This document shows positions 1 through 34,548 of a stretch of 37,409 bases of DNA, piece by piece. The stretch is from an uncultured Leptospiraceae bacterium (GTDB lineage Bacteria; Spirochaetota; UBA4802; JAGODF01): positions 1 through 37,409 of the forward strand of contig CAZPZJ010000007.1 in assembly GCA_964591055.1 (NCBI GenBank), read 5' to 3'. The notes under the pieces were generated by a model, which was not told the origin of the DNA, did no database searches, and saw nothing but the letters and a program-made list of their open reading frames with translations. The position numbers and the translations under genes were made by a program. Each line of letters starts with the position of its first letter. The stretch's first letter is position 1.

Positions 1-939
1 GAGCGCGACGCCGTAGTCGTTCATCAGCTCCGAGTACTCAAACCCGTCGGCGCGCCTTAACACTTTCAGCACGTTGAGCGAGGCGTTGAAGCATTCAATC
101 GCGTTTCCAAGCGGGGAGGAATCGCTTCCGGCCATGCCAAGATACGCCCGCCCCTTCAGGCCCATCACCGCGGCGTACTGGGCGCTTGCCCTCTCGTTCC
201 GCGTGCGGAGTATCTTCTCCGCGCCGTCAAGGTATTGAACCGCCGTTTCGTGCCGCGAAAACACATCGCTGTGCAGCCCGGCAAGCTCGCCGATTGCGTC
301 CACATACTCCCCGTCCGCGTTGACGGCCTTTTGAAAATACGTCAGCGCAAGCCGCGGATCGGAATGGCGCTTTTCAAGCCCCATGCAGTAGTATCGGTAC
401 GCTGTCTGGCTCGTCTTCCGGCGGGCGCCGCCGTCAAACGCGGTCCCGCCCAGGTCGACGCCCTTTTCGCGAAGAAGCCGAAGCAGCGTAAACGCGATCT
501 GCTCCTGCTTCTCACGAAGCTGTCCCGGCGCGCCGGTGATCCGAAACGACTCCAGTATTTTCTGCTTCCGCACGTCGATGAAGTCCGTGGTGATGGTAAG
601 ACCGCTGTCGTCGATGCGGTACGACCCGGTCGCGATGTACTGCGCCGCCAGGAGCCTGCCGACCTTGATCTGGTTTTCGTACACTCCGAGCTGGCTGAGT
701 GTTATCTCGCCCAGGGCTCGGTCCCGCGCTTCAGGCGTCACCACCGTGATTGCGGGCGAAGACGTAAGATCGCTCGCGAGCGCCCTGGCTATCCCCGCGC
801 CCGCGTACGAGTGCTCGGCCGCGCCCAGGTTGCGGTAATTCATCACGCTGACCACCGCCCGGCCGGCGGCCTCCCCCGCGCCGGAATACGCCATGACCAT
901 GAAAAGCGCCGCAAGCGCACATAAGGGTTTCAGCTTCAT
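1..939 (-). CDS. Secreted CsgG/LpoB-like N-terminal domain + TPR protein (C-terminus runs off the window)
   Basis: This gene is not in the supplied track because it is open at the window edge. Hand translation of the minus strand from ATG 939..937 (GGAGG 4 nt upstream) gives MKLKPLCALAALFMVMAYSGAGEA (signal peptide). Next comes VVSVMNYRNLG..GIARALASDLTSS..ITVVTPEARDRALGEITLSQLG..KVGRLLAAQYIATGSY, a CsgG/LpoB-type pattern. TPR-like helices follow (YRYYCMGLEK..ALTYFQKAVNADGEYVDA). The frame stays open to base 1. The +strand ORF 235..924 is its antisense shadow. Confidence 0.6.
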   Translation of the reverse strand, partial: MKLKPLCALAALFMVMAYSGAGEAAGRAVVSVMNYRNLGAAEHSYAGAGIARALASDLTSSPAITVVTPEARDRALGEITLSQLGVYENQIKVGRLLAAQYIATGSYRIDDSGLTITTDFIDVRKQKILESFRITGAPGQLREKQEQIAFTLLRLLREKGVDLGGTAFDGGARRKTSQTAYRYYCMGLEKRHSDPRLALTYFQKAVNADGEYVDAIGELAGLHSDVFSRHETAVQYLDGAEKILRTRNERASAQYAAVMGLKGRAYLGMAGSDSSPLGNAIECFNASLNVLKVLRRADGFEYSELMNDYGVAL

Positions 940-949: not shown

Positions 950-1687
950 CTAAAAATCATCAATCCGCACGACGATGGCCGAGGAGTTGTCCGCGCCTCC
1001 CCGGTCATTCGCCATCTGCACCAGGTCCCGTGCGATTCTCTCCGTGTCGGGATCGCCTGAAATCGCCGCGCCGATATCGGGGTCGTCGACGTATCCGCAG
1101 ATCCCATCCGTGCACAGGAGCAGGATGTCGTTCCTCTTCAGCTTTTCAGTCTTCACATCCACCGCGACTTCGGGTGACGTTCCCACCGCGCGCATGATGA
1201 CATTCCGCTCCGGATGCGTTATCGCCTCTTCGGGCCTGATGATTTTCGCGTCGACAAGCATCTGCACCTTCGAATGGTCCCTGGTTATCTGTATAAGCCT
1301 GTTTTTCCTGTAAATATAAAGCCTGCTGTCGCCCACCCAGCCCACATGCAGGTATTTCCCTGCGAGCAACGCGACCACCGCGGTCGTCCCCATCCCTTTT
1401 TTCGAGGGATCGGCCAATGCCGCGGCATAAATCCCGCCGTTCGCCCGGATGATCGATCGCTCTATCAACGCCCTGGCGGCTTTGTCCTTCATTCCCTGCA
1501 CATATCCCGCGCGAAGGATTTCAAGCGCCGTACGCACCAGCTCCGCGCTCGCCACCTCGCCGCATGCGTGTCCTCCCATGCCGTCGGCAAGCGCGAACAG
1601 GCCAAGGGATTCGTCAAACCCGATCGAATCCTCGTTCAGCTTCCTCACGAGCCCCACGTCAGTTTTACCCGACACCGCGTATTCCAT
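950..1687 (-). CDS. PP2C-family Ser/Thr protein phosphatase
   Basis: The 245-aa product carries the classic PP2C motifs: GKTDVGLVRKLNEDS, FALADGMGGHACGEVAS, LLCTDGICGYV and RGGADNSSAIVV. It lies 10 nt upstream of the next minus-strand gene and 34 nt downstream of the FHA-protease gene, consistent with an operon. Confidence 0.9.
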   Translation of the reverse strand: MEYAVSGKTDVGLVRKLNEDSIGFDESLGLFALADGMGGHACGEVASAELVRTALEILRAGYVQGMKDKAARALIERSIIRANGGIYAAALADPSKKGMGTTAVVALLAGKYLHVGWVGDSRLYIYRKNRLIQITRDHSKVQMLVDAKIIRPEEAITHPERNVIMRAVGTSPEVAVDVKTEKLKRNDILLLCTDGICGYVDDPDIGAAISGDPDTERIARDLVQMANDRGGADNSSAIVVRIDDF

Positions 1688-1721
1688 AAGCTCTCCACCA
1701 CGTATGTGATTTTTCCATCAA

Positions 1722-3404
1722 TCAGTACTGAAGCGCAACGTGCTGTCCGGCGAAAACCCGCGCGGAACTTCCCGATATCCCCGTATTGATCGGGGCGGGA
1801 TTTGCCGAGACCTTTCTCGCCAGAGATCCCAGATCGCCGATTTCAACCGTTCCCGACGTGTCAAGCTCCGGTTGCGCCCCGTCGTCAGAAAGCGTCATCA
1901 TGGTCTCCACGCCCTGGTTTATAAACTGCCTTCCGCCGTCGAGGTACAGCCCGGCCCTGTGTACGGCGATCACCTTCCCCTCCGGCGTTATGACGGGGCC
2001 GCCCGAGTTTCCTTCCTGCGTGGTGATGTCGTACAGGAGCCTTCCGCCTTCATCCACCCTCGACACGATCCCGGCGAGCGCCGTGCATGACGCGATCGAT
2101 CCCGGCTCGTCAAGGCCCGAAGGAAACCCGAGGATCACCACCGGGCACGCCTGGGCCGGTGCCTGTGACTCGATTTTCAGGCTGGGGCACCCCGATTTAT
2201 CGACTTTCAGCAGCGCGAGATCGGCCTGCCGGTCCACCGCGACAATCCTCGCGCCAAGTGCGCCGCCCGTGCCGTTAAAGGTGACAGTGATGGCACGCAG
2301 CCTCCCGGTGAATCCCCTGTCGCGGAGGTCGTCATGAAACGCCCACGGATTGGCCACGTGCGCGTTGGTGATGATGTAGCCGTCCTCTCTGACGCAAAAC
2401 CCGCTGCCCCGCATGGAAAAACGGCACGGCCTGCCGTCATACATTCCCCGCCGCCCCGTACCCGCCTCCACCAGGTCGTATGTTGTCGCGATTCGGACAA
2501 CCGCCTTCCCCGCCTCGTTTACAGCTCCGCTCATCGCCTGGATGGAACGCCTCATTGAACGCACGTTTCTTTTCAGCGCCTCTATGTCATCGCGAGCGGT
2601 CTTTCCGTCCCGCTCGAGCAGCGCAACCTTCTCAAGAAGGGCGCTCTCGGAATCGCGCACGCATTTTTCCAGCATCCTGTCGGCCGTCTTGAGCTCCGTG
2701 TAATGATAGTATTCACGAACGCCCGTGAACGCCGCTCCCAGCGCGACCAGTGCGATGACAAATGCGAGTGCGTAGATGTTCATCCTTGTTTTCTTTCTTT
2801 CCTGGCCGATACGCAGGTCGATTTTTTTCTCTTCCTGCTTTAAAACGCGCAGGAACATGCTCTTCCGCACAAAGTCCTTCCCGGACTCGAATGCCCTGAT
2901 CACCGCGCTATCGCTTTTTATTCGCGGACCGCCGGGAGCCCTTTCGCGCGCATGCGCGTCATCCACGAATGTCCCGTCCGCAGCTTCGCGGCGCGCACCC
3001 CCCTCCGCCATTCCCCGGTCCCGCACGGGCGGGACGGGGATGTACGGACGATCGTCACGGATCGGCGTATCTTCATAGATGGCAACCCTCACCTGCGGGC
3101 CGTTCAGGCCGCACTGGATGACATCACCGTTCCGCAGCTGCTGCTCTTCCACCAAAAGGGAATTCACGTAGGTCCCGTTCTTCGCTCCCGCGTTTTTAAG
3201 CACATAAGCATTTCCCACCAGCTTCACTTCGCAGTGCATGCCGCGAGTCGCGACGGCATCCGCGAGGTGATCAAAGGAAATATCGCAGTCCTGACTGCCA
3301 GGTTTCATCTCCCTCCCCAGGACAATGCTCTCTTTTTCACGCCCGTATTCGCGTACAAGACCTTTTTTCCCGCCGGAAATGACCTCAAGGCATATCTTCA
3401 TCAT
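1722..3404 (-). CDS. FHA domain - TM - coiled coil - trypsin-like (S1/DegP-type) serine protease fusion
   Basis: The N-terminus is an FHA domain (VLGRE..CDISF..RGMHCEV..NAGAKNGTYVN..L.NGDVIQCG). A single TM follows (IYALAFVIALVALGAAF), then a coiled coil. The catalytic triad contexts are ITNAHVA, DLALLKV and GNSGGPV. I chose the start at the ATGATG at 3404 (GAGGGG upstream) rather than the track start at 3473. Confidence 0.85.
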   Translation of the reverse strand: MMKICLEVISGGKKGLVREYGREKESIVLGREMKPGSQDCDISFDHLADAVATRGMHCEVKLVGNAYVLKNAGAKNGTYVNSLLVEEQQLRNGDVIQCGLNGPQVRVAIYEDTPIRDDRPYIPVPPVRDRGMAEGGARREAADGTFVDDAHARERAPGGPRIKSDSAVIRAFESGKDFVRKSMFLRVLKQEEKKIDLRIGQERKKTRMNIYALAFVIALVALGAAFTGVREYYHYTELKTADRMLEKCVRDSESALLEKVALLERDGKTARDDIEALKRNVRSMRRSIQAMSGAVNEAGKAVVRIATTYDLVEAGTGRRGMYDGRPCRFSMRGSGFCVREDGYIITNAHVANPWAFHDDLRDRGFTGRLRAITVTFNGTGGALGARIVAVDRQADLALLKVDKSGCPSLKIESQAPAQACPVVILGFPSGLDEPGSIASCTALAGIVSRVDEGGRLLYDITTQEGNSGGPVITPEGKVIAVHRAGLYLDGGRQFINQGVETMMTLSDDGAQPELDTSGTVEIGDLGSLARKVSANPAPINTGISGSSARVFAGQHVALQY

Positions 3405-3551
3405 TGCGTTTCCCCTCACAATGGCCACGTGTTCTGTAACGGATGTGCGACATACAGGAATAGACGGCTGCAAGCATAAGATTTCAACTTTATTTCAGCC
3501 TATGATAATATTTTTTTTCGTCCATTAATTATTAACATGCCATTATTGCCC

Positions 3552-3581
3552 TTGACAATCAATTTAAATTTGGCGTACATT
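3552..3581 (+). promoter_or_regulatory. Sigma70-like promoter candidate for the FHA-PrsW gene
   Basis: TTGACA (3552..3557), an 18-nt spacer, then TACATT (3576..3581). It sits in the AT-rich divergent intergenic region about 35 nt upstream of the ATG at 3616. Confidence 0.4.
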
Positions 3582-3615
3582 CAACCGGTGAAAAAAAGTG
3601 GGCGGGAGAGCAAGC

Positions 3616-4875
3616 ATGAGCGTGATGTCCGAAAGCAGCATGATTACCGTAACATTCATCAGCGGCCCCAGGAAGGGCGAAACGTTGAGGTTCGGCAAGA
3701 GCGTAATCACATTCGGCAGGGAGGAATCATGCGACGTTTCATTCAGGGGAGAGAGTTACTCCACGGTATCCGCAAGGCACGCCGCACTGGAATTCAAATC
3801 GGGCTCATGGGTGCTCACCGACACCAGCACAAACGGCACCTACGTCGGGGATAAAAAGCTTCTGCGCAAATCGTACGTCACGCTGAAGAGCGGAGACACG
3901 TTTCGGTTTTCGCGAAACGGCGACCTGCTCAGAGTAAGTATGGAAGGGGACGTTCCGAGGGAAGACGGCTTTATGACCAATCCCGGCATCACAAAAATAA
4001 TCCCCATCGCCAGAATGGACTTTATCACAAACCTCAAATCACAGCCCTTCTTCATCATCGGAATCATCACCGCAATCTCCGGGGTTCTGCTCTTCTCGCT
4101 GCTGAACGCCGCAGCCGAGAGCCCATCGGGCACGGCCACCGGCTACATCTACGCGTACGAGCTTTTGCTCGGGCTGTACATCGGGGCTTTGATTCTCTTC
4201 GCCATTACCAGAATCTCGAAAACCAGGATGCCGGCATGGTTTATCGCCTGGCCCGCGGCCACCACGGCGGTAATGCTTTTCTTTTTCAGCCCCCTCCTGG
4301 TGAACACGTCGCACTCTTCGCTGTTCAGCCCGCTGCTTTCCGAATACAACAGGAGTTTCATCCTGTCGCTCGCCGGCCACTTCCTCGGGGTCGGACTTCC
4401 CGAGGAGCTATTTAAAAGCATCCCCGTATGGATTGGCGTCATTTTCGCGCCGGCCTTCGAGAAAAGAAAGATCAGCGGCTTCGGCGGAGGGCGCCTCCAC
4501 CAGAAAGCGGCCGTTTTCATCGGCGCGTCATCGGCGATCGGATTCATTATCGTGGAGACCCTCTTTGTGTACGTGCCGGGAATTCAGCGGCACGGGGACA
4601 TCGCTGCGGGGCTGATGCTGCTCATTCCTCGATTCATCACGGGGATCAGCGGGCACGTGGCCTGGAGCGGCACGTTCGCTTACTTCATCGGGCTGGCGCA
4701 GAACATAAAGGCGGGAAAACTCAAGTACGTCGCCGGGGCATGGCTTGCCGCCGGGCTGCTCCATGGGCTCTGGAACGCGGCGTCCATAACGGGCTCACCG
4801 CTCCTTCTGGGCGGCATCGTCGCCGTCATTTCATTTATCGCCTTCAGCGCCTATCTCTACAAGGCCCAGGATTGA
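3616..4875 (+). CDS. FHA domain fused to a PrsW-like polytopic intramembrane metalloprotease
   Basis: The N-terminus is an FHA domain (FGREESCDVSF..STVSARHAALEF..DTSTNGTYV..LKSGDTFRF). At least 6 hydrophobic helices follow, carrying PrsW-type motifs: EELFK (ExxK), IIVETLFVY, GHVAWSG and HGLWNA (HxxxN). I placed the start at ATG 3616 (GGGAGAG upstream); the track's GTG is at 3598. Confidence 0.8.
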   Translation: MSVMSESSMITVTFISGPRKGETLRFGKSVITFGREESCDVSFRGESYSTVSARHAALEFKSGSWVLTDTSTNGTYVGDKKLLRKSYVTLKSGDTFRFSRNGDLLRVSMEGDVPREDGFMTNPGITKIIPIARMDFITNLKSQPFFIIGIITAISGVLLFSLLNAAAESPSGTATGYIYAYELLLGLYIGALILFAITRISKTRMPAWFIAWPAATTAVMLFFFSPLLVNTSHSSLFSPLLSEYNRSFILSLAGHFLGVGLPEELFKSIPVWIGVIFAPAFEKRKISGFGGGRLHQKAAVFIGASSAIGFIIVETLFVYVPGIQRHGDIAAGLMLLIPRFITGISGHVAWSGTFAYFIGLAQNIKAGKLKYVAGAWLAAGLLHGLWNAASITGSPLLLGGIVAVISFIAFSAYLYKAQD

Positions 4876-4933: not shown

Positions 4934-7495
4934 TCAGAAGGGATATCTAAGAAACTTTCCCTCTCTGTTGATGTATGCAATCTTAAAATCGTATGTGCTG
5001 TTTGGATTGAGTACATAGACCTTCGCCACGCCGTTTTTAAATACGTAGGCGTCCCTGTCTTGCATTATTGCTTTTTCATTACTTGTATCAATACCCGGAT
5101 AACGGTAGGCCAGCTCGAACACGGGCCTGTTGTCCCTGTCAATGTACTTGATAATTCCCCCGGCCACGACCGCGGCGAGCCCCTCACTGAAATCAAACGC
5201 CCTGTCATACTGAAAGTTTATCTTGACGTCTCCCGAGGCGGTTACATACCCCCAGCGTGATTGCATGCTGGCTCTTGCGAGGCCCTCACTGAAATTGCCG
5301 GCACGATCATACTCAAAAATGGAAGTATTGAAATTCGAGTCGATATAGGTAAATTTCCCGTTTTTCCTAATCGAAGCCCGCCCCTCGTGGAAATCCGAAC
5401 AGGTGATTCTGTTTAATGATAATGAATACTCACCTCGATCGCTTCCGCCATGTAAAAAAACTCTTATGTAAAACACACCGCTGATAGACATGGTCAGGTA
5501 ATCGGAGACATCACTGCTATAAGCGCTACCTATCAGATTATTCATCGTTCCGTCATAAACCTCGAAATCGATATTGGTTAAGCTGTCATGATTGAGCTCA
5601 ATATCGACGGGATTCACCAGATTTCCTCCAACCAGGAACCAATCCTCCTGATCGCCGAAACCGAGAATTCCTTGAATAATGTCTCCGGGATTGGCATTGC
5701 TCAATCTGTCCGGATTGAATGCCGTATTGTTATTTGTTAATCCTGCACTTATTATTTCCGATTCAAGCATAATATTTATGGTCTGGAGCGTCTTCTTCAT
5801 ATCGCCACTTTTATCAATATACCCCATGTGCATGTTATCCCGCGCACACGCAAAGCCCTCATAAAAATCGCCCGCGCTTGTAAAACGCGGCGGAATCACC
5901 TCCTCTCCGCTTCTATTGATGAATCCGAACAGGAGCTTGTTCCCGTCTCTTTTACTGACACGCGCCAGCCCGTCAGAGAAATCATATACGCATGAGTAAT
6001 TCTGATTTACATTCATTCTCTTCCCGTTTAAATCGATGTAATCATAGACACCGTTTATATGAACCCAGGCCTTCCCCTCGTGGAAATTGCCGGTAAAGTC
6101 AAATATCGGATCCGTTACGGCTTTACCCGATGTGCCAATAAATCCGATTTTTCCATTTTTTAAATACCACGCCCTTCCCTCAAAAAACTCACCCAGCCCA
6201 TCAAATGTGGGCCGAATCACTTCTTCGCCGTCACTGTCCATTGCGCCCCAGTTGTTTCCCGCTTTAAACGGATACAGTGTCCGCGGACAGCTCAGCGCCA
6301 GCCAGAGAACAACAATCAGGACAAGCGCCCCAAGCGCCGCTCCCCCAACGATTGATTCCTTTTTTCTGGCGCGAATGAACTGCAGTACGATGTCCCTCAT
6401 GTTTTTAATGCGCTCGATGGCCATTCCGAAATAGTTCTTCTTCACCGACGCAACAACGCCGACGGGAATATCCGGGACCGTTTCCTCTCTCATCACCGGC
6501 TTTACCACCGTCACTGTTTCCACTGCGGCATCGTCCTTCCGGCCTTCATCTTTCACCGGATCGGGCTTCACCTGCTTTCCGGACAGCTTCGCGATAGCTT
6601 CAAGTACGGCCTCGGCGCTTTGAGGCCTGTTCTCCTTTCTTTTTTCCAGCATTCCGTCCACAAGTTTCACAAGCCCGGCGGACACATAGGGCGCAACGTT
6701 CGCGAGGGACTCCGGTTTCACTTTCACCTGCTTGGACAGGAGGTCGTCTGTCGAGCTGCCGTCCAGTGGGACGCGCCCCGACAGCATTTCATACATCATA
6801 ACTCCCAGCGCATACAGGTCGGACCGCCCGTCCACGCCCTCCTTCCCCGAGCACTGCTCCGGCGACATGTACCGCAGCGTACCCACCGTGTGCCCCCGGG
6901 TTGTCAATCCCGTTTCGCCCATCACTTTCGCAATGCCGAAATCCATCACATAGAGATTCTCCCCGCCGTTTTCAATCCTGCCAATCATTATGTTGTCGGG
7001 TTTAAGGTCCCGGTGAAACACCTCCGTGGAGTGGGCGAATTTGAGGGCCTCACACACCTTGCTCACATACTCGACAACATCGCCCTCAGGCAGCGTTTTT
7101 TTCCTGGCGATCATGGCCGACAGCGTTTCGCCCTCCACAAGGGGCATGGTGAAAAACGTGATCCCGTTTATGACATCCGCGGAAAAAATCTGAATGATGT
7201 TCCTGTGATTGAGCCGCGCCAGGACCTGTATTTCCTGCAGAAACCTCTTGCGCACTCTTTCATTGAACGATAACGCCTTTGGCAGCACCTTGATCGCCCT
7301 CGGCCGGTCGAGCATGACATCCCTGACCTGGTACACAATCGCCATGCCCCCGCGGCCTATTTCCCTGATCACCTCGTACTTCCCGGACAGGGCGTTTCGA
7401 ACCTCCCGCAAATCGGCGTCCTCAAGCATTCGCCCGCATCCAATGCAGAAAGAAGCGCCGTCCTCATTCTCGGTATTGCACACATTACACAGCAT
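4934..7495 (-). CDS. Zinc-ribbon / Hanks-type Ser/Thr kinase / TM / WG-repeat ectodomain with embedded PPC-like domain
   Basis: The protein starts MLCNVCNTENEDGASFCIGCG (a CxxC..CxxC ribbon). The kinase motifs are GRGGMAIVY, AIKVL, HRDLKPDNIM, MDFGIAK and GTLRYMSPE. A TM helix follows (GGAALGALVLIVVLWLAL). Many WG-type repeats are present (F.EG.A....GK.GYID..G). A PPC-like block is also present (GDIIQGILGFGDQEDWFLV..GVFYIRV..GEYSLSL). I placed the start at ATG 7495 (GAGGGGG upstream); the track start at 7513 is a TTG. Confidence 0.9.
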   Translation of the reverse strand: MLCNVCNTENEDGASFCIGCGRMLEDADLREVRNALSGKYEVIREIGRGGMAIVYQVRDVMLDRPRAIKVLPKALSFNERVRKRFLQEIQVLARLNHRNIIQIFSADVINGITFFTMPLVEGETLSAMIARKKTLPEGDVVEYVSKVCEALKFAHSTEVFHRDLKPDNIMIGRIENGGENLYVMDFGIAKVMGETGLTTRGHTVGTLRYMSPEQCSGKEGVDGRSDLYALGVMMYEMLSGRVPLDGSSTDDLLSKQVKVKPESLANVAPYVSAGLVKLVDGMLEKRKENRPQSAEAVLEAIAKLSGKQVKPDPVKDEGRKDDAAVETVTVVKPVMREETVPDIPVGVVASVKKNYFGMAIERIKNMRDIVLQFIRARKKESIVGGAALGALVLIVVLWLALSCPRTLYPFKAGNNWGAMDSDGEEVIRPTFDGLGEFFEGRAWYLKNGKIGFIGTSGKAVTDPIFDFTGNFHEGKAWVHINGVYDYIDLNGKRMNVNQNYSCVYDFSDGLARVSKRDGNKLLFGFINRSGEEVIPPRFTSAGDFYEGFACARDNMHMGYIDKSGDMKKTLQTINIMLESEIISAGLTNNNTAFNPDRLSNANPGDIIQGILGFGDQEDWFLVGGNLVNPVDIELNHDSLTNIDFEVYDGTMNNLIGSAYSSDVSDYLTMSISGVFYIRVFLHGGSDRGEYSLSLNRITCSDFHEGRASIRKNGKFTYIDSNFNTSIFEYDRAGNFSEGLARASMQSRWGYVTASGDVKINFQYDRAFDFSEGLAAVVAGGIIKYIDRDNRPVFELAYRYPGIDTSNEKAIMQDRDAYVFKNGVAKVYVLNPNSTYDFKIAYINREGKFLRYPF

Positions 7496-7525
7496 AGCAT
7501 CCCCCTCTCGCAATCGCTTGATGTA

Positions 7526-8920
7526 TTATCTGTTTGAACCGAACTTCTCAACCAGCGCATTGATCTTATACTGCAGATATATGGCCCCCAGAAAGAACGT
7601 GGCCGCCCCGGAAAAAGCGACGTCCGCCTTCATGTGGAGGTTAAAATGCTCGTCAAGCATTCGCTGCCCCTTGAACGCCTGCACCACGAGCAAAACCGGC
7701 AGAAGAATCATGAGAGCCAGAAACAACAGGATAGCGATGCCGAGCGCATCCGATTGGCTATGTGGGTTTTCCGCAGTTACGCTCCATACATACAGGAAAA
7801 GAATCGCCTCGGTGATGCAGAGTATGATAATAACACCAAGGACATTCTGGCTGAACTTTTCGCGCGTTGTCAGGCTGTTAAACAGTTTCATCCTGCCTGA
7901 AAACCAGAATGGCATGTACAACCCGGCCGATACAACCGTGAAAAGAATCACAAGCGCAAGATTCGTTTTTTGCAATTCAAGGGGGCCATCGGGAACGTCC
8001 GCGCCGCCTCCCGCCGCTTCCAGGGCCTTTGCCGCCTCCGCGGCGCTTTGCGGCCTTTCCGACGGTTTTTTTTCAAGAAGCGAATCCACAAGCCCCGCCA
8101 GTCTCCTGTCGATCTTTGGATTGACGGCGAGCAGAGATTCAGGCTTTTCATGAATATGATTGTACATCAGCGAAGTGGTCTCCCCCTCAAAGGGGAGCCG
8201 TCCGGAAAGCATCGCGTAAAGGACAACCCCCAGCGCGTAAAGATCGGTTCTCTGGTCCAGTTGCCCCCCGGTCCACTGCTCCGGCGCCATGAACTGCGGA
8301 GTGCCCACAAGTTTATCGCTTGAAGCCCTGTCTGAGTCCGACATCGCCTTCGCGATACCGAAGTCCATGATGTAAACATGGTTCCAGCGGTCCACCATGA
8401 TGTTTTCAAGCTTCAAATCCAGGTGAAGGACCTTCCTTGTATGGGCGTATTCAAGCGCACGGCACACCTGAAGCGCAATTTCCACCGCTTCCCGTGAAGA
8501 CAACGCACCCCGTTCCTGGAGGTAATTTTGTAAGTTATTTCCCTCAACATGTTTCATGGTGAAATAGAAATATCCATCCACGCTATCGGCGCTGTAGAGA
8601 TGAACGATGTTCGGATGGTCGATTTTAGCGAGCAACCTCACCTCATGCTTGAATTGCTCAATAAAACTGGCGTTATATGTGAGGTCCCTGGGGAGGACCT
8701 TCAATGCGACGTCCCTGTCAAGAGAAACATCCCTCGCCAGATACACAATCGCCATGCCCCCCCGGCCTATTTCACGCGTTATCTCATACCTGTCCCTGAC
8801 GAGGCCTCTCAACTCCTCGATTGTTTTATCGTTTTCCGGCGCTACGATCAGCTCGTTGCCGCATTTTTTACAGAACTTCGCGCTTACTATATTCCCTGTT
8901 CCGCATTTATCGCATATCAT
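7526..8920 (-). CDS. Zinc-ribbon / Ser/Thr kinase (non-RD, HLD) / C-terminal polytopic DUF4234-like membrane module
   Basis: The protein starts MICDKCGTGNIVSAKFCKKCG. The kinase motifs are GRGGMAIVY, VALKVL, HLDLKLENIM, MDFGIAK and GTPQFMAPE. The C-terminus has four or more hydrophobic helices with GLYMPFWF and GAIYLQYKIN signatures. I prefer the start at 8920 because of a GGAGG 5 nt upstream; the track start is 8974. Confidence 0.85.
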   Translation of the reverse strand: MICDKCGTGNIVSAKFCKKCGNELIVAPENDKTIEELRGLVRDRYEITREIGRGGMAIVYLARDVSLDRDVALKVLPRDLTYNASFIEQFKHEVRLLAKIDHPNIVHLYSADSVDGYFYFTMKHVEGNNLQNYLQERGALSSREAVEIALQVCRALEYAHTRKVLHLDLKLENIMVDRWNHVYIMDFGIAKAMSDSDRASSDKLVGTPQFMAPEQWTGGQLDQRTDLYALGVVLYAMLSGRLPFEGETTSLMYNHIHEKPESLLAVNPKIDRRLAGLVDSLLEKKPSERPQSAAEAAKALEAAGGGADVPDGPLELQKTNLALVILFTVVSAGLYMPFWFSGRMKLFNSLTTREKFSQNVLGVIIILCITEAILFLYVWSVTAENPHSQSDALGIAILLFLALMILLPVLLVVQAFKGQRMLDEHFNLHMKADVAFSGAATFFLGAIYLQYKINALVEKFGSNR

Positions 8921-9303
8921 TTCATCCTCCGCGCACTCAAGTGGGAAATAAGTCCCTTCCATGGCCCATGTCATACCGGCACCGAACTTATCTGACGCTT
9001 CCTCCGTATTTTTTCAAGAAAATAAATATTATACGGTTTGCGACCTGCCCGCACGGGATCATTTGGATGAACGCTGTCCCGGTCGTAAGCCCCCCGAAGT
9101 CGCTTTTCATGAAAACCAGCCGCGGGACACATCGCAGTACTTTATAAGAGGACGTTTCACGTCCTTAAAATTTATAAAAAATCCCCCATGATTATTCGCG
9201 CGGAGAGCTTGCGTTCTTCAGCGCACGCATCCGTGATGGAAATGAAACCTGCGTCCTCCACAAGCCTCTTCACCATCGGGGCGCATCCGCACGATCAACC
9301 TTT

Positions 9304-9816
9304 TCACACCTTGCGCGTTTTTTCCTGTATCACCTCTCCCAGCTTTGCCCCACCCAGGCCGACAAGGTAGAGGATGGCGAACCCGAAGATGTTGAATCCC
9401 TCCATCTTCCCGGTGAACAGGGCGGATATGAGGTTGATGAGCAGAATCACGATAACCGCCCCGATCGCCGGTTCCTTGAGCGTCACGCCGGGCGAGCGGT
9501 ATGCCGAAAACATGCTGCCGAGGAAAATGCCGATAAAGGCGCCGACGCCCAGATAGGGAAGCGCGGCCGCATTGTCCTCCAGGTTGCCACCTCCGGAAGC
9601 GTAGATGATAATGGCGATGATGATACAGATAAACCACGCCGCCCCGATAATGAGCGCCGATTTCGCGACCCATTTCCAGTCGATCGTTTTGGCCGGCGGT
9701 TGTTCAGCCGCCGTTGCCGCGGCCGGCGCCGATTCAATCCTCGCGCCGCACGATGTGCAGAAAACGCTGTCCGATGCCGATTCCCTGCCGCATTTCTGAC
9801 ACAACCTGTTTTCCAT
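9304..9816 (-). CDS. N-terminal zinc-ribbon membrane protein (4 predicted TM helices)
   Basis: MENRLCQKCGRESASDSVFCTSCG is followed by an Ala/Pro linker and then Gly-rich hydrophobic helices. AGAGGGGG lies upstream of the ATG. The gene sits 21 nt downstream of the PrsW gene. Confidence 0.65.
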   Translation of the reverse strand: MENRLCQKCGRESASDSVFCTSCGARIESAPAAATAAEQPPAKTIDWKWVAKSALIIGAAWFICIIIAIIIYASGGGNLEDNAAALPYLGVGAFIGIFLGSMFSAYRSPGVTLKEPAIGAVIVILLINLISALFTGKMEGFNIFGFAILYLVGLGGAKLGEVIQEKTRKV

Positions 9817-9837: not shown

Positions 9838-10722
9838 TTATACGATTTTCCGCCCGCATTGCGGGCAAAACAACGCCGATTTCGAGGTTTTGCCGCCGCA
9901 TGAATCGCAAATCATAAAAAACTCGTTTTCAACCCGTATACTTCTCCCGCACCGGCCGCAAAACGCGTCCAAAGCCGCATTCACGGTCAGGCAATACGGG
10001 CACTGGCCCGGCTTGAGGAAATTGCTGCGCGCGAGCAGGTAGTCGGTTTTCCTCAGCGCGTACAGGTACAGAACGACGACAAGCGGCAGCACCGCGAGCC
10101 CTCCGGGCGTTCCCATCTGAGTGAACGCAATGAAGTCGTACAGCGCGTGCAGCAGCGCCCCCGCGGCGACATACGGCCACATCACCGCCGCGTAAGACCT
10201 CTCCGGGTGCTCGAATTTCGCCATCGCAAGGCCGTAGCCCCATACCGCCGCGAACCCTATATGGCCCGGCACCGCCATCAGCGAGCGCGCGACAAGGGTC
10301 CCCATCCCCTCAACCAGCGAGCCCGCGAGCGAATACCCGATGTTCTCGAACACGGCGAACCCGAGTGAGACTGTCATCGCGTATATCATGCCGTCCACGG
10401 GTTCGTTGAAATCTTTCATTTTTTTCACAAGCAGCACGGTGACGGCGGCCTTGACGGCCTCCTCGTTGAAACCGACAAACGTCGCCATCCACAGCGCGGT
10501 GAGGGGCGGCATCACCGCCTCCACCGAAACGCCGGAGATGCCGCCCGCCGCGAAATTGAACGCAGAGGCGACACCACCGCTCGCCAGGCCGCCCACCAGC
10601 CCCACCCTGAGCAGCTCCTTCATGGGCTCCGGTTCAACCCGGTCGCGCTTATACAGGATGTAAAACCATACGGCCCCGGCCGCGAAGACCGCGATCAGTA
10701 TTAGCAGATTATTCATTATCAT
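9838..10722 (-). CDS. PrsW-family intramembrane metalloprotease with two C-terminal zinc ribbons
   Basis: The PrsW motifs are canonical: FNEEAVKA (EExxK), GFAVFENIGY, PGHIGFAAVWGYG and HALYDF (HxxxD). The C-terminus carries CPYCLTVNAALDAFCGRCG and CDSCGGKTSKSALFCPQCG. Confidence 0.75.
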   Translation of the reverse strand: MIMNNLLILIAVFAAGAVWFYILYKRDRVEPEPMKELLRVGLVGGLASGGVASAFNFAAGGISGVSVEAVMPPLTALWMATFVGFNEEAVKAAVTVLLVKKMKDFNEPVDGMIYAMTVSLGFAVFENIGYSLAGSLVEGMGTLVARSLMAVPGHIGFAAVWGYGLAMAKFEHPERSYAAVMWPYVAAGALLHALYDFIAFTQMGTPGGLAVLPLVVVLYLYALRKTDYLLARSNFLKPGQCPYCLTVNAALDAFCGRCGRSIRVENEFFMICDSCGGKTSKSALFCPQCGRKIV

Positions 10723-15042: not shown

Positions 15043-16623
15043 TCACGCTTTCTGTTCCGCATGCCTGCCGAACCCCACCCTGCTCGTGTTCTGAGTCCGC
15101 TCGAAATCCTTGAACGCCCGGCGCACGTCGATTTCACGGATGATGATTTCCGCCGACTCGCCATGCACGTCCTCGAGGGCGTGCCGCAGTATCGCGGTGG
15201 AAAGCTCCACCACCATCGAGCCTGTCATCACGGAATGCGACGGGACGACATCCATGAAACGCTCGAATGACTTCCCGAACGCGTAAAGTTTCTTTTCAAG
15301 AAGCTCCGCGATGCGCTCCCTGCCGAGCTCTCCCATGAACACGCGGGAGTCTATCCTTCCGGGCCGGTCTACGATCGCTTTTTCGATATTGTCGATCCTG
15401 TTGGTGGTGATGACGACGAGTATTCCGTCATTCTCCTCAAGCCCGTCCAGGTGGCTCATCAGGCTCGCGGTGCCGACCCTGTTCGTGTTCATGCTGTCGC
15501 GGTCCTCGATGTAAAAATCAAGGTCCTCAAGGATGATAACAGACGGCCTCCCGATCCTGGCGATCCTGAAGATGCGGTTGATATCATCGACGGTTGCGAT
15601 ATCGCCGGCTTTCACCCATATAACGGTCTGTTCCATAACGCTCGCGATAATCTTGGCAAGCATGGTCTTGCCGGTGCCGGGAGGGCCATAGAGCGCCACC
15701 CCTCGCTTGAACGGCAATCCGGCTTTCCTGTACACCGGCTCCATTGTAAAGAAGCTGAATATCTCCCGCTCTATCTTCGCCCGCACCGCGTCTTCGAGCA
15801 CCAGGTCGTCCAGCGCGAGTTTCTCCTTCAGCTTGATGATCCGCTGGTCGCCGGTAAATTTGCCGCCTTTGATATCGATATTGTCCATCAGCAGCGCCTC
15901 AAAATTCTCGCCGAACAGCCGTTCCACCTTCTCCGTATCACCGGCCCTGGCGAACGCCTTGAGCACAAGCTTTGAACCCAGGGAGCAGTCGTCCTGCCTG
16001 GCGATGCCGACGGCGAACACCAGGTCGTCTTTCATGAACACCCGGTAGCTGTTTATATCGACATACTTGAAGACGTCCTCCCTCACCTCGATGCGCATCT
16101 TCTCCGGCGATTTATAAATGTCCTTGCTCCACGACACCGCGCCGAGGCAGGCGTAATCATGAAAGAGCCTGTCAATCGCGGCAGGCACCGACATCAGCAT
16201 CGAATCGGAAACGGTGGCGACCGCGATTTCCATGTGCTTTCCCAGGAAAAAGGTGAAGTGCTCCATGGACACAAACCGGTCGGGTGTTTCTTTCATTATC
16301 GTCGATTTCAGATCGGGAAGAAACGCCTTCGCGAAGCCGTCGCACGGCGTTTCAGCCGAGCACGTCAGCCGGTGCATCGCGCCGTAGTAATTCTTCTCCC
16401 TCTCATCCGCTTCAGCCAGCTCGAGCACCATGCGCGTTCCGCCCGCCAGCTCGATCGTCATGTCCGATCGCACCGGAATCGCGGTGGAACCGTTGACGAA
16501 CACGTTCCGTGTTCCCGCCGTCCCCCCGGTGATTGAAAAACCCCGCATGGCTGACATCTTCTCAAGTGCCCTGTCGAGATTGAGCATTTCAAATTCTGAA
16601 AGATACAATGCGTACTGTTCCAT
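15043..16623 (-). CDS. AAA+ ATPase (classical FtsH/Cdc48-clade single AAA module) with about 300-aa uncharacterised N-terminal region
   Basis: The motifs are Walker A GVALYGPPGTGKTMLAK, Walker B PSVIILEDLD, and the second region of homology VVITTNRIDNIEKAIVDRPGRIDSRV. The N-terminal 300 aa have no motif I recognise. Confidence 0.9.
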   Translation of the reverse strand: MEQYALYLSEFEMLNLDRALEKMSAMRGFSITGGTAGTRNVFVNGSTAIPVRSDMTIELAGGTRMVLELAEADEREKNYYGAMHRLTCSAETPCDGFAKAFLPDLKSTIMKETPDRFVSMEHFTFFLGKHMEIAVATVSDSMLMSVPAAIDRLFHDYACLGAVSWSKDIYKSPEKMRIEVREDVFKYVDINSYRVFMKDDLVFAVGIARQDDCSLGSKLVLKAFARAGDTEKVERLFGENFEALLMDNIDIKGGKFTGDQRIIKLKEKLALDDLVLEDAVRAKIEREIFSFFTMEPVYRKAGLPFKRGVALYGPPGTGKTMLAKIIASVMEQTVIWVKAGDIATVDDINRIFRIARIGRPSVIILEDLDFYIEDRDSMNTNRVGTASLMSHLDGLEENDGILVVITTNRIDNIEKAIVDRPGRIDSRVFMGELGRERIAELLEKKLYAFGKSFERFMDVVPSHSVMTGSMVVELSTAILRHALEDVHGESAEIIIREIDVRRAFKDFERTQNTSRVGFGRHAEQKA

Positions 16624-18100: not shown

Positions 18101-18727
18101 TCAGCACGCGAGGCTCTCGTTGTAGCCCTTGACCGAAAGGCAGTTGCGCAGAAACTGCATCGCCTTCTGAAGGTTCTGGCTCAGCAGCGAAGGGGATATC
18201 CCGAGTTCCCTGGCGATGTTCTTCTTCCGCCTTCCCGCCAGGACCTCGTGGATGATGCCCCGAAGCGTCGGCGAGAGCGTTTCAATGCAGGAATAGAGCG
18301 CTTCGAACTCGTGGTTCAATTCGACATCGCGGGCCACGTGCGCCCGGGAGTCCTGAAACCCCTCCTCCATATCGCAGGCACGCGCTTTCGCGGCCCTCCG
18401 GGCCCCGTCGGTGATCAGGTTGCGGATGACCGTTCTCATGTAGTTGTAGAACTCGCCCACGGAGTTTCCCCTGAATTCCGCGCTCTTCTCGATGAACCTG
18501 GTGAACGCTTCGTGAATGATGTCGAGATACTCCTCCTCGACACCGGTGCGCACCATCGTCCCGAACCAGCCCTGTACCAGATTGTACACGTCAAGAAACA
18601 CCTCCTGATCAATCTGCTTTCCCCCGCGCACCTGGGCGATGAACATGATGACCCGCCCGGCGCAATCGCCCTGTTCCGTGCGCTCGGCGTATGGGTGTGT
18701 GGTCTGCCTCTGGTTCTCGATAAACAT
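18101..18727 (-). CDS. Sigma-70 family RNA polymerase sigma factor, ECF-like (group 4)
   Basis: Region 2-like sequence: IIHEAFTRFIEKSAEFRGNSVGEFYNYMRTVIRNLITDGARR. Region 4 helix-turn-helix: LSPTLRGIIHEVLAGRRKKNIARELGISPSLLSQNLQKAMQFLRNCL. The start is uncertain (18727 or the internal ATG at 18646). Confidence 0.8.
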   Translation of the reverse strand: MFIENQRQTTHPYAERTEQGDCAGRVIMFIAQVRGGKQIDQEVFLDVYNLVQGWFGTMVRTGVEEEYLDIIHEAFTRFIEKSAEFRGNSVGEFYNYMRTVIRNLITDGARRAAKARACDMEEGFQDSRAHVARDVELNHEFEALYSCIETLSPTLRGIIHEVLAGRRKKNIARELGISPSLLSQNLQKAMQFLRNCLSVKGYNESLAC

Positions 18728-20122: not shown

Positions 20123-20262
20123 TCTTGCAACAAACTATTTTTCACAGCCAGCAAATTATTGCTAAAAAAAATACGGAGTCACCGTCTATTCAGGAGAGCG
20201 GCCATGCGGGACAGCCCGGCGAAGCCGCTGTGTTGAATACCAACGGAACCCAGGAGGAGTTC

Positions 20263-21180
20263 ATGACGGATATACTCTCAAAGGAGGAGATCGAAGCCCT
20301 TCTCAACGCGATTGCCACGGGCAATTTCGATACGACACATCATTACTATGGAAAAGAGCAGCGAAAAGTCACGCACTACGATTTCCGCCGTCCTGAAAAG
20401 TATACTGAGGCCCACCTGCAGGCACTCCGGAGGGTGCACAAGGACTTCGCGGCGCAAGCCATGCGCGTCCTCTCGGGCCAGCTTGGCGTTCGCGCCGACG
20501 TTCAGATCGATGGGGTGCACCAGCTTACCTATGAAGAGTTCTTACGCACCCTGCCTAATCCCACGGCCCTGGGCATCATCGCAATGGATCCCCTGGGCGA
20601 ATACGCGGCGCTGGAGATAGACCCTGCGCTCGCGTGTGCGATGATTGATTTACTGTGCGGCGGGACAGGGGACTATTGTACAACTCCGCGCGCTCTGACC
20701 GACGTGGGGCTCTCGATCATGGAATTTATCTTTGTCCGCCTGCTGGGAGAGCTGCGGCAATCATGGTCGGGCATCATCGACCTGCTCCCGCGGCTGATGA
20801 ACATCGAGCCCGATCCGCGAAACGCGCGGCTCACAAACCCCGATGAAATGATTGTTTCTATCGCCTTCTCCACAAAGGTTGGCCCGGTCGAGGGGGTCAT
20901 CAATCTCTGCCTGCTCGAAAAAGCCTGCGGCCTCCATAAAACCGTTGACACGGCAAGCCGCAGCGGAGCGCCTCCGGCGGGAAAGGGAATCCTCGCTGAC
21001 GCGATTGAAAAGACCGTGTACTCCCTGTACCGCGTCTATCCGCTTCGCGCTCCGGCAGGATATCCTTCGTGGTCAATCCCGGCCACAAAGGGCCTTAAAA
21101 TCGCCGTCGACCCGAACGTGCGGGATACCACGGAATATGAGCAACACAAAACCTGTCAGGGAGGCGGCCATGAACAGTGA
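20263..21180 (+). CDS. fliM: FliM-like flagellar switch (C-ring) protein
   Basis: AGGAGG lies 5 nt upstream of ATG 20263. The N-terminus MTDILSKEEIEALLNAI matches the LSxxEIDALL-type CheY-P-binding peptide. The core reads YDFRRPEKYTEAHLQALRRVHKDFA..VHQLTYEEFLRTLPNPTALGIIAMDPLGEYAALEIDPALACAMIDLLCGG and ..GVINLCLLEKACGL, which is close to the FliM consensus. The C-terminal 80 aa or so are divergent, and by eye I cannot decide whether a SpoA fold is present. Confidence 0.8.
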   Translation: MTDILSKEEIEALLNAIATGNFDTTHHYYGKEQRKVTHYDFRRPEKYTEAHLQALRRVHKDFAAQAMRVLSGQLGVRADVQIDGVHQLTYEEFLRTLPNPTALGIIAMDPLGEYAALEIDPALACAMIDLLCGGTGDYCTTPRALTDVGLSIMEFIFVRLLGELRQSWSGIIDLLPRLMNIEPDPRNARLTNPDEMIVSIAFSTKVGPVEGVINLCLLEKACGLHKTVDTASRSGAPPAGKGILADAIEKTVYSLYRVYPLRAPAGYPSWSIPATKGLKIAVDPNVRDTTEYEQHKTCQGGGHEQ

Positions 21181-24833: not shown

Positions 24834-26129
24834 CTACTTCCCACCAGCCGAAACAACCACGCGGAACCCGTTCCCTGACCAGCCGAACGCGAAGTCGGGA
24901 TTGTTCCAGTCCCGGAAGGCGGAACGGAGGTTGAGGTAGTAGCCTTGGTACCACGAGCCGCCGCGAAGAACTCGGGATGTCCCGCGCTCAGGACCCTTCG
25001 GATTCCGCTCTGGACTGTTTGCATAATACTGCTCATCATACCAGTCAGCACACCACTCATTCACGTTCCCAATTATGTCATACAAGCCAAAGGCGTTCGG
25101 ACGGAATCTCCCCACCGGCGCCGTCGTATGCGCATACCCATCGTTACAATCAACAATTGAACAATCTGAGCTCATCCACGATCTATACGCCCTATACGCC
25201 CTGTCCAACAAGTTCCCATAGCGACAGGCATCCCTGACATTATCCCCCCAAAAATACGCCGTTTCGCTCCCCGCACGGCACGCGTACTCCCATTCCGCCT
25301 CCGTAGGAAGCCTCACCGCCACCTTATGCTTCTCGCTGAACTTCCAGCAGAACCCCTGCGCATTATGCCAACTCACCTGCTCCACCGGACGGTTCCCCTT
25401 AAACCAGCCCTTGAAATGACTGGGATTTTTTCCCATGATCTTCTTATACTGCGCCTGCGTCACCTCGTACTTGCCCATCCAGAACCCGTCAACACTCACC
25501 CGGTGACGCGGCTGCTCTCTTCGATAGTCCGAAATACCTCCCCCATACTTCCTCACCAACTCCTCCGGGCTCTCCTTTGAGCCCATCATGAAGCTCCCCG
25601 AAGGCACGTACACAAGCTCCATCCCGCCAACAGTTTTTGTCTCTCCCGCTTTATGGGTATCAACAAAAGTTGGCTCCGTCCGCGCCGCCTTCTTCTCCCC
25701 CGGCACGTACAGGTACACCGGCATCCCCTTCGCAAGCTTTCCAAAGTATTTGCGGCTTGCCGCCTCCAGCGTGCACTTTGACGAGGTCAGCATCGGGAAG
25801 GTCGCCGTCATCATCGCCTTCTCATCCCCCACCTCCGCGTACACACGCTCCCCCATGTGCAGAATCCTTTTCGTCCGCACCAGCACCTCCCGGTTTCCCC
25901 GATTCACCCGGTGGATGCTGCCCACCGGAGTGGATGGTGAAACCACGTTTTCTTCAACTGCAACCGCTTTCGATGGGTCCGCCTTCGGGGCTGCAATCTC
26001 AGTATTTGCGGGTTCCACCCTCGCCGGTTCAGCCCGCGGCGTCTCCACCCGCGGCCGCGTGGCGCACTGTGGCAGCGCAATCGCCGCGGCGAAGAGCATT
26101 ATGAGCACGCACATTCTCCGGTCCATCAT
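24834..26129 (-). CDS. FGE-sulfatase (SUMF1/formylglycine-generating-enzyme family) domain lipoprotein
   Basis: The signal peptide and lipobox are MMDRRMCVLIMLFAAAIALPQC. The FGE-family signatures are GSFMMGS, RHRVSVDGFWMGKYEVTQAQY, NRPVEQVSWHNAQGFC, RLPTEAEWEYACRAGS, FGLYDIIGNVNEWCADWY, RVLRGGSW and GFRVVV. An extra domain of about 70 aa lies at aa 79-151 (see findings). Confidence 0.85.
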   Translation of the reverse strand: MMDRRMCVLIMLFAAAIALPQCATRPRVETPRAEPARVEPANTEIAAPKADPSKAVAVEENVVSPSTPVGSIHRVNRGNREVLVRTKRILHMGERVYAEVGDEKAMMTATFPMLTSSKCTLEAASRKYFGKLAKGMPVYLYVPGEKKAARTEPTFVDTHKAGETKTVGGMELVYVPSGSFMMGSKESPEELVRKYGGGISDYRREQPRHRVSVDGFWMGKYEVTQAQYKKIMGKNPSHFKGWFKGNRPVEQVSWHNAQGFCWKFSEKHKVAVRLPTEAEWEYACRAGSETAYFWGDNVRDACRYGNLLDRAYRAYRSWMSSDCSIVDCNDGYAHTTAPVGRFRPNAFGLYDIIGNVNEWCADWYDEQYYANSPERNPKGPERGTSRVLRGGSWYQGYYLNLRSAFRDWNNPDFAFGWSGNGFRVVVSAGGK

Positions 26130-26243
26130 CTTCCTCCAAATAATCCATTGATATCGCACACGCGCAGGAAGGATTGCTTCGTCACCGGCGTTCCTCGCAA
26201 TATCGCTGACATAAAACGTCGTGCAACGCCTTTTTCCATTCGC

Positions 26244-26720: not shown

Positions 26721-26976
26721 CTGTTAAAACCCTCATCAAGCCGCATGGTCACTCCCGTGTACGCGCTCAAATCATCATCGGCGGTCAGTGGCCGCCAACT
26801 TCCTCTTGTTAAGCGGACGACGTTACGTGATTTTTTTAAAGAAAAAAAAGGCCCCTCCGAAAAAAGTTGATTTTATGGCGTGATGGTTTAAGAAAATGAA
26901 AAAATCGTTAAATTTTTCCGGCAAGCTCATCCATTACAACGATGAACGACATAATTCCACCATGCCACGAGGTAGT

Positions 26977-28668: not shown

Positions 28669-28680
28669 CGGCGGGCAACC

Positions 28681-32292: not shown

Positions 32293-32346
32293 GGTGCGCG
32301 GCGGTTGCGTCTACCAATATTAAGGGCATATTTTCCCCAACTTGAG

Positions 32347-32372
32347 TAATAGAGAGAAAGGACTCTCTATTA
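32347..32372. terminator. Hairpin between convergent genes at the GC-content boundary
   Basis: TAATAGAGAG-AAAGGA-CTCTCTATTA forms a perfect 10-bp stem. It overlaps the ankyrin gene's stop codon (32370..32372). Confidence 0.45.
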
Positions 32373-32969: not shown

Positions 32970-33095
32970 TCCTTATCCCCCCGATATTTATTTGAATAAA
33001 ACAATACTAAATACAATATAAAATATATGCTTTACATATCAATTACTTTTATTAATTTTTACAGTATATAATAATAAAAACAAAGGATTTACTTT

Positions 33096-34382: not shown

Positions 34383-34548
34383 TAAATCGCAATAACAGGC
34401 AATTTAACCAGTAAACACTGACAATCATGTCGTCTCGGGACATAAAGCATTGACAAATGCTTTCCGTAATAGTTCATTTTACACTATATTTGTCTATTTA
34501 TCGTTAACTTACCTTCAAGATATATATAATCGCACAATATTATGGAAG

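Follow-up and report, generated by a model that had tools for sequence, protein, structure and literature searches.

Two divergently transcribed genes from an uncultured Leptospiraceae bacterium each join an FHA domain, the reader of phosphothreonine (pThr), to a protease, and this raises the question of whether Ser/Thr phosphorylation inside the cell could control proteolysis at its membrane. The genes lie in a stretch of 37,409 nucleotides (positions 1 to 37,409 of contig CAZPZJ010000007.1, assembly GCA_964591055.1; hereafter the window, meaning this whole stretch). A first-pass annotation, made from the sequence itself, had described the two fusions together with a PP2C phosphatase gene and two Hanks kinases, and had proposed that proteolysis is gated by phosphorylation. 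The reading that we favor, with slightly better than even confidence, is that the locus constitutes a membrane-bound Ser/Thr phospho-signaling module with two FHA-docked proteases as its outputs. The features on which this reading draws are as follows:

1722 to 3404, minus strand: FHA-S1, a protein of 560 amino acids that joins an FHA domain and a transmembrane helix to an HtrA/DegS-like serine protease (Pfam, transmembrane helix, AlphaFold2 model, Foldseek)
3072 to 3404, minus strand: FHA domain of FHA-S1
2859 to 3068, minus strand: disordered linker of FHA-S1
2721 to 2777, minus strand: transmembrane helix of FHA-S1
2508 to 2720, minus strand: helical stalk of FHA-S1
1947 to 2501, minus strand: protease domain of FHA-S1
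1725 to 1946, minus strand: clade-specific C-terminal extension of FHA-S1
3405 to 3615: AT-rich spacer between the two divergent genes, containing a promoter-like site
3616 to 4875, plus strand: FHA-PrsW, an intramembrane protease of 419 amino acids (Pfam, AlphaFold2 model, alignment)
3643 to 3942, plus strand: FHA domain of FHA-PrsW
4045 to 4869, plus strand: eight-helix PrsW domain of FHA-PrsW
950 to 1687, minus strand: PP2C Ser/Thr phosphatase of the Stp1/IreP type (Pfam, NCBIfam, metal-site motifs)
1 to 939, minus strand: secreted TPR protein, encoded third in the FHA-S1/PP2C operon by a gene of which the window contains the 5' part
4934 to 7513, minus strand: sensor kinase with a Zn-ribbon, a Hanks kinase domain, a transmembrane helix and a WG-repeat ectodomain (the WG kinase)
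7526 to 8974, minus strand: protein with a Zn-ribbon, a Hanks kinase domain and three transmembrane helices, encoded 12 nucleotides upstream of the WG kinase gene

The open reading frames of both fusions and of the PP2C were found at exactly the coordinates given in the first-pass annotation, and Pfam matches bear out the domains assigned there. Furthermore, FHA-S1 and FHA-PrsW are on record as called genes in a public protein collection (P0001 and P0057, 100% identity), indicating that they are not chance reading frames. The motifs NAHVA, DLALL and GNSGGP of the serine protease and EELFK and HGLWN of the PrsW domain are all present in the translations.

FHA-S1 matches the Pfam families FHA at residues 28-99 (E 3e-11, 44.0 bits against a cut-off of 20.7) and Trypsin_2 at residues 333-481 (E 4e-24, 86.3 bits); a PDZ domain was also sought with Pfam and gave no match. 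A single hydrophobic helix spans residues 210-228 and is richer in Lys/Arg on its N-terminal side. The AlphaFold2 model has a mean predicted local distance difference test score (pLDDT) of 71 and consists of a confident FHA sandwich at residues 2-111 (FHA pLDDT ~90), a disordered linker of about 70 residues at 113-182 that carries a semi-conserved Thr, a very long helix at 178-265 holding the transmembrane segment, a second helix at 271-299, the protease at 302-486 and a poorly predicted C-terminal tail. The modeled helices are thus consistent with the single transmembrane helix and coiled-coil stalk that had been predicted from the sequence. In Foldseek searches the protease was matched best by the protease domains of HtrA1, DegS and DegQ, with target TM-scores of 0.7-0.8, and its catalytic triad is conserved, with codons at 2358-2360 (H349), 2220-2222 (D395) and 2004-2006 (S467). 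The protein falls below all NCBIfam cut-offs for HtrA, DegS and DegP (degP_htrA_DO, 51 bits against 416; DegS, 42 against 423), and the best NCBIfam match of its protease domain, to MarP, reaches 63 bits, under a cut-off of 250. Judged by these matches, the protease domain is of the HtrA type, yet it stands outside the named HtrA/DegS/DegP families. The C-terminal extension of about 75 residues gave no Pfam match even at E values up to 1.

FHA-PrsW gives Pfam matches to FHA at residues 31-98 (E 3e-16, 60.1 bits against 20.7) and to PrsW-protease (PF13367) at residues 206-409 (E 5e-22, 78.8 bits against 23.5). The AlphaFold2 model (mean pLDDT 87) shows an FHA β-sandwich (~90) that is joined by a short linker of low confidence to eight long helices. 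In an alignment of 28 FHA-PrsW homologues, some as little as 25% identical, the PrsW residues E263, E264, K267, F310, E314, H347 and H383 are invariant and N387 is kept in at least 90%; the catalytic codons lie at 4402-4407 (E263/E264), 4555-4557 (E314), 4654-4656 (H347) and 4762-4764 (H383). The polytopic domain therefore keeps its assignment to PrsW, as judged by both Pfam and the alignment. No match was obtained to the NCBIfam PrsW equivalog (intramemb_PrsW). In Foldseek searches the FHA portion aligns with the pThr-binding domains of GarA, OdhI and FhaA, at target TM-scores above 0.8, and the top 50 matches of the model are FHA structures throughout. Among NCBIfam models the FHA domain is matched best by FhaB/FipA, with a score of 46 bits where the cut-off is 125.

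The two FHA domains differ in how well they preserve the residues that contact pThr. All of these residues (G34, R35, S52, H55 and N73) are invariant across the 28 FHA-PrsW homologues. An alignment of FHA-S1 with its relatives likewise shows invariant G30, R31, H57 and N76; however, the FHA-S1 of the window has Thr at position 53, where its three closest relatives retain the phosphate-contacting Ser, and it also carries an insertion of one residue. The pThr-binding signature (Gly-Arg, Ser-x-x-His, Asn) is thus complete in FHA-PrsW and only partly present in the window's FHA-S1. The two domains of the window are relatives, with 32% identity (E 6e-12), and the best matches outside PrsW in searches with FHA-PrsW are FHA-Trypsin proteins. 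Together these similarities suggest that one FHA module has been grafted onto two types of protease. Both FHA domains are N-terminal, lack a signal peptide and precede the first transmembrane helix, which puts them, like the kinase domains, on the cytoplasmic side of the membrane. With only one transmembrane helix ahead of it, the S1 domain is expected to be extracytoplasmic.

FHA-S1, the PP2C and the secreted TPR protein are encoded in a tight operon. The FHA-S1 stop codon and the PP2C start are 34 nucleotides apart, in agreement with the operon placement of the PP2C in the first-pass annotation, and the PP2C stop is 10 nucleotides from the ATG (939) of the next gene, which is preceded by GGAGG. 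The phosphatase matches Pfam PP2C/PP2C_2 (E 2e-12) and exceeds the cut-off of the NCBIfam model Stp1_PP2C_phos (235.8 bits against 230), and its metal-site motifs DGMGG, GDSR, TDG and ADN are all present. The TPR protein begins with a hydrophobic, signal-like segment, and its N-terminal domain gives an LpoB-like hint below the cut-off (E 0.034).

On the other side of the locus, the WG kinase gene, which ends at 4934, is convergent with the FHA-PrsW gene and lies 58 nucleotides from its stop codon (4875). Pkinase matches cover both kinase genes of the minus strand (4934-8974), as the first-pass annotation had proposed in describing two Hanks kinases that converge on the locus. The WG kinase matches Pfam Pkinase (E 9e-49) and Zn_Ribbon_1, has five WG_beta_rep stretches and a transmembrane helix at residues 388-406, and retains the motifs HRDLKPDN, DFG and SPE with TT in its activation loop; its juxtamembrane region contains ETVTVV and EETVPDI, which are TxxV/TxxD motifs. 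The second kinase (Pkinase, E 3e-56) has a Zn ribbon, three hydrophobic helices and the motifs HLDLKLEN, as in a non-RD kinase, DFG and APE. To judge from these motifs, both kinases are apparently active.

The linkage between these genes is conserved in other genomes. The divergent FHA-S1/FHA-PrsW pair occurs again at two loci, L007 and L008, on contigs of one metagenome assembly (GCA_030154545.1), with 39-53% identity. In L007, FHA-PrsW is divergent from FHA-S1, a PP2C with 53% identity to that of the window and a gene with TPR_12 repeats to which the TPR protein of the window is 45% identical; a Zn-ribbon protein and a kinase-FGE fusion follow. In L008, FHA-S1 is divergent from FHA-PrsW, which converges on a WG-repeat gene in the same position as in the window. 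Related arrangements include a kinase-PP2C operon that closes with a gene for an FHA-transmembrane-Trypsin protein (L006) and an FHA-FHA-Trypsin gene close to a kinase (L096). A profile search with FHA-PrsW against 1.84 billion representative sequences (50% identity) returned 773 matches at E <= 1e-30, and among the best 150 there are at least 50 in which one continuous stretch of alignment covers FHA as well as PrsW, from which the fusion is seen to be moderately widespread. A PP2C and a kinase are found near FHA-PrsW in 8 of the 10 distinct loci for which context is available, and these loci come from several phyla. Thus the neighborhood that the first-pass annotation had described for one genome recurs, as the pair in L007 and L008 (with the PP2C in one of them), as the kinase-PP2C-FHA-Trypsin set of L006 and as the common company of FHA-PrsW.

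Several of these loci share a collinear operon of about 10 genes that comprises two small FHA proteins, a weak vWA match, MotA/ExbB, FHA-PrsW, vWA-FHA, a transmembrane FHA protein (DUF805 or DUF975), PP2C and a kinase-TPR protein. It is present in Marinimicrobia (L001-L004), in a metagenome-assembled genome (MAG) of Opitutia (L011) and in two metagenomes (L094, L095), and our search for a published description of it found none. A Leptospirales MAG carries FHA-FHA, X-FHA, PP2C, kinase and FHA-PrsW genes, and a metagenomic locus (L098) carries vWA, PP2C, FHA, FHA-PrsW and kinase genes. A scan of a genome collection with a 15-sequence FHA-PrsW alignment yielded four loci only. A metagenome scan with the FHA-S1 clade alignment yielded no new clade member and no FHA-PrsW locus, as ordinary HtrA proteins dominated through the motif GYI[IV]TNAH.

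Three further observations concern these relatives. The L011 contig (PAZC01000044.1, 1-15243) holds the FHA/vWA/PP2C/kinase/MotA-ExbB/FHA-PrsW operon in two tandem copies 9928 nucleotides apart, with 87.6% identity across 5315 nucleotides of overlap, reflecting either a tandem duplication or assembly from a mix of strains. An RDD-domain gene adjoins FHA-PrsW in L005 (11424-13562, 1701-3263) and L098 (9412-11054), with a weak match to Peptidase_M50, the site-2 protease family, nearby; the FHA-PrsW proteins of these two loci, one of which is cyanobacterial, are about 29-30% identical to that of the window. Finally, the region between the divergent proteases of the window contains a promoter-like consensus match on the plus strand (TTGACA-18-TACATT, 3552-3581), and an AT-rich block (ATTAATT.T.A...CATTAT) is common to three divergent intergenic regions, at 3515-3550 in the window, 1634-1967 in L008 and 1126-1471 in L007. 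Found in three sequences, two of them close relatives, the block could conceivably represent a common promoter or operator.

How would such a module operate? One or both Hanks kinases would be activated, with the extracytoplasmic WG-repeat domain of the WG kinase as a candidate sensor, and would phosphorylate threonines that face the cytoplasm, either their own or those of a membrane partner. Candidate sites are the kinase activation loop, the juxtamembrane TxxV/TxxD motifs and the disordered linker of FHA-S1. The cytoplasmic FHA domains of both proteases would then dock onto pThr, and docking would recruit, position or allosterically switch the PDZ-less HtrA/DegS-like periplasmic protease on its stalk and the PrsW-type intramembrane protease, and these would then cleave a target in the membrane or the periplasm. 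Removal of the phosphate by the Stp1-type PP2C would reset the module, with the co-transcribed secreted TPR protein as a likely periplasmic partner or substrate. We infer this control of proteolysis by FHA-pThr docking, its direction and its substrate from the domains, residues and gene linkage, the same grounds that make phosphorylation-gated proteolysis, as proposed in the first-pass annotation, a reasonable reading. The accompanying description of proteolysis on both sides of the membrane was loose, as one protease is periplasmic and the other intramembrane, with an active site that may face either side.

Several results weigh against this reading. The Thr at position 53 and the one-residue insertion could weaken pThr binding by the FHA-S1 of the window. 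The pairing of FHA-S1 with FHA-PrsW was observed in three loci only, all close relatives, and most FHA-PrsW loci have no S1 partner. This absence beyond the closest relatives indicates that the trio of FHA-S1, FHA-PrsW and PP2C is a lineage-restricted variant. Two cyanobacterial loci have FHA-PrsW without a neighboring kinase or PP2C. In addition, the search of the window gave no site-2 (M50) protease, no membrane anti-sigma factor and no identifiable substrate.

The alternative that survives best, although we regard it as unlikely, is that the FHA domain acts as a localization or scaffold tag rather than as a gate, so that constitutive proteases of envelope quality control or maturation, with HtrA-like housekeeping roles or PrsW-like roles in cell-wall or division processing, are tethered to a kinase hub. 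FhaA and FhaB/FipA act as such tethers around PknA/PknB in actinobacteria, and it is FhaB/FipA that best matches the FHA domain of FHA-PrsW. The best match of the S1 domain, MarP, is also a membrane-anchored periplasmic protease, one that acts on a cell-wall hydrolase. However, both of these similarities, like the LpoB-like hint in the co-transcribed secreted protein, lie under the family cut-offs. Envelope and transport genes (NamZ, TatC/SecDF, PEGA, BamE-like, YkuD) do stand beside FHA-PrsW in relatives, but the cluster in the window has no cell-division or peptidoglycan-synthesis genes such as RodA or a penicillin-binding protein (PBP). A scaffold would still require docking of FHA onto pThr and thus differs from a phosphorylation-controlled output only in what docking does.

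Within the reading of two FHA-docked proteases as outputs, a more specific and doubtful version is a phosphorylation-licensed proteolytic cascade, in which a cytoplasmic FHA domain would have replaced the envelope-stress sensor in homologues of both classical site-1 proteases, DegS-like and PrsW-like. The timing would be set by a Hanks kinase, and a substrate shared by the two proteases would receive a periplasmic cut followed by one within the membrane; this membrane substrate might be an anti-sigma-like protein, the ectodomain of the kinase itself or the co-encoded TPR protein. If true, a reversible phospho-signal would be made irreversible and regulated proteolysis would be steered from inside the cell, for which there is no known bacterial precedent.

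The first-pass annotation had also suggested that the locus may belong to the conflict systems of the NTP-dependent vWA/MoxR type, in which the peptidases would kill or arrest the cell upon a phosphorylation trigger, as in defense against phage. FHA-PrsW relatives do share operons with vWA-FHA proteins, and trypsin-like peptidases and kinases are known from some defense systems, in keeping with domain-level PADLOC matches to RT-Protease_XI and PD-T4-6; the window also contains an AAA_5 ATPase, accompanied by a 1203-residue orphan protein (26896-32292). PADLOC is nevertheless silent on FHA-PrsW, and its remaining matches cover generic kinase and protease domains only. Pfam detects no vWA, MoxR or VMAP gene inside the cluster of about 13 kb at 1-12.7 kb; the AAA_5 gene is not linked to it and lies about 22 kb off, past flagellar-switch, GrpE and FGE genes. 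Moreover, the operon is collinear across phyla amid housekeeping genes, unlike a typical variable defense island, and both kinases have the membrane architecture of sensors. Kaur et al. (2020), in their account of NTP-dependent conflict systems, name FHA and PP2C sporadically and in passing, and PrsW nowhere. Membership in this class is accordingly not borne out, and we consider a conflict function very improbable. Least probable of all is a fortuitous adjacency of unrelated FHA-protease genes and generic kinase and phosphatase genes with no joint function. In its favor, some genomes are rich in Hanks kinase, PP2C and FHA genes and the cyanobacterial FHA-PrsW genes stand alone, but the synteny disfavors it, with order and orientation kept on two other contigs at 39-53% protein identity, a PP2C and a kinase beside FHA-PrsW in 8 of 10 loci and operon gaps of 34 and 10 nucleotides.

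With respect to novelty, the FHA-PrsW fusion is not itself new, since Zhang, de Souza, Anantharaman, Iyer and Aravind (2012; PMC3482391) had listed fusions of PrsW to FHA, PilZ, cNMP-binding and Zn-ribbon domains as likely 'signaling peptidases'. Both PrsW architectures of the window, FHA-PrsW and a PrsW-Zn-ribbon protein described below, are of that kind. Theirs was a prediction of one sentence, with no gene-neighborhood analysis, no FHA-S1 pairing and no experiment. Our literature search found no paper on FHA-S1/FHA-PrsW pairs, and the pairing of FHA-PrsW with an FHA-HtrA-like protease appears to be undescribed.

Each protease resembles a characterized enzyme but also differs from it. Bacillus subtilis PrsW (MEROPS M82) is the site-1 protease of the anti-sigma factor RsiW and is triggered by envelope stress. 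Like it, FHA-PrsW falls into PF13367 and has a polytopic membrane domain with conserved EExxK, FxxxE, H and HxxxN motifs, but it differs in its N-terminal cytoplasmic FHA domain, in lacking an equivalog match, in having neither a SigW/RsiW-like pair nor a site-2 protease nearby and in its proposed input, which would be cytoplasmic phosphothreonine. Escherichia coli DegS, of the DegS/HtrA group (S1C), is also a site-1 protease. FHA-S1 resembles this group in fold (TM-scores of 0.7-0.8) and triad, and DegS in its N-terminal membrane anchor and periplasmic protease, but it lacks the PDZ domain that usually serves in envelope sensing, carries a cytoplasmic FHA domain and a disordered linker of about 70 residues ahead of the anchor, and ends in the extension of about 75 residues.

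As a whole, the locus is a conserved but lineage-restricted form of the familiar Hanks-kinase/PP2C/FHA module, one in which the outputs would be FHA-fused proteases. The same kinase-FHA-effector logic is followed by PpkA/PppA/Fha1 of Pseudomonas aeruginosa, which belong to a type VI secretion system, and by PknF/Rv1747 of Mycobacterium tuberculosis, where the effector is an FHA-ABC transporter. The FHA domain of Bdellovibrio DgcB (FHA-GGDEF, PDB 6hc1) was among the Foldseek matches of the FHA-PrsW model. By analogy, the nearest experimental counterpart of the wider module is the vWA-STPK-FHA-PP2C operon of Deinococcus radiodurans (STPK, Ser/Thr protein kinase), for which a recent preprint describes push-pull control on kinases by FHA and PP2C. 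What would be common to all of these modules and the present one is that pThr made by a membrane kinase is read by an FHA domain within the effector or beside it and is removed again by a PP2C. In contrast, the effectors here are two protease classes whose output would be irreversible, and no type VI secretion, ABC-transporter or GGDEF genes accompany them.

Upstream of the two kinase genes lie two further genes:

9304 to 9816, minus strand: Zn-ribbon membrane protein with three transmembrane helices (weak Pfam Zn-ribbon matches, three hydrophobic helices)
9838 to 10722, minus strand: PrsW-family protease with a C-terminal double Zn-ribbon (Pfam PrsW-protease, E 1e-30; DZR, E 4e-7)

Both are possibly part of the same signaling locus, the former by adjacency. 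The second PrsW shares about 23% identity with the PrsW domain of FHA-PrsW, which rules it out as a recent duplicate of the latter. Zn-ribbons recur in this region, at the N-termini of both kinases, in the 9304-9816 protein and in the second PrsW, and Zn-ribbon proteins are also found in L007 and L002. The kinase of L007 is fused to an FGE-sulfatase domain (7080-9065); the FGE-sulfatase-domain protein of the window (24834-26159, minus strand) is stand-alone and 20 kb off.

Elsewhere in the window, an ECF (extracytoplasmic function) sigma factor gene (18101-18727) was considered as part of a PrsW-type sigma/anti-sigma pair and rejected, its neighbors being soluble-looking and none of them bearing a transmembrane helix. 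An AAA ATPase (15043-16623, minus strand) matches PADLOC IetA models (E 3.7e-14), but no partner protease is present beside it and the match is probably generic. The region 20125-24172 (plus strand) encodes a divergent FliM without the FliN-like C-terminal domain, followed by a reading frame of about 1000 residues (likely start 21170) with two FliN/SpoA-like segments and a complete FliG (N, M and C), an unusual fused flagellar switch; a search with FliM gave divergent matches only, the best of them at 48% identity. At 26896-32292 (plus strand) the AAA_5 ATPase, which is MoxR/McrB-like, precedes the 1203-residue protein, for which Pfam, NCBIfam and PADLOC gave no match. Finally, in 32000-37409 the G+C content falls from about 0.58 to about 0.40 and ankyrin, MORN-repeat and LAGLIDADG-like proteins are encoded; this may be a foreign island.

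Hanks-kinase/PP2C/FHA modules control secretion, transport, metabolism and cell-wall synthesis, and regulated membrane proteolysis answers envelope signals. The reading of pThr by an FHA domain fused to a membrane protease has so far been predicted from domain architecture. The locus described here would allow this link to be tested on a compact set of genes: besides two kinases and a single phosphatase, it encodes proteases of two classes and a protein that may be their partner in the periplasm. It also leads to a larger operon, conserved in marine and other uncultured lineages, in which multiple FHA proteins, vWA, MotA/ExbB and FHA-PrsW are combined with a PP2C and a kinase.

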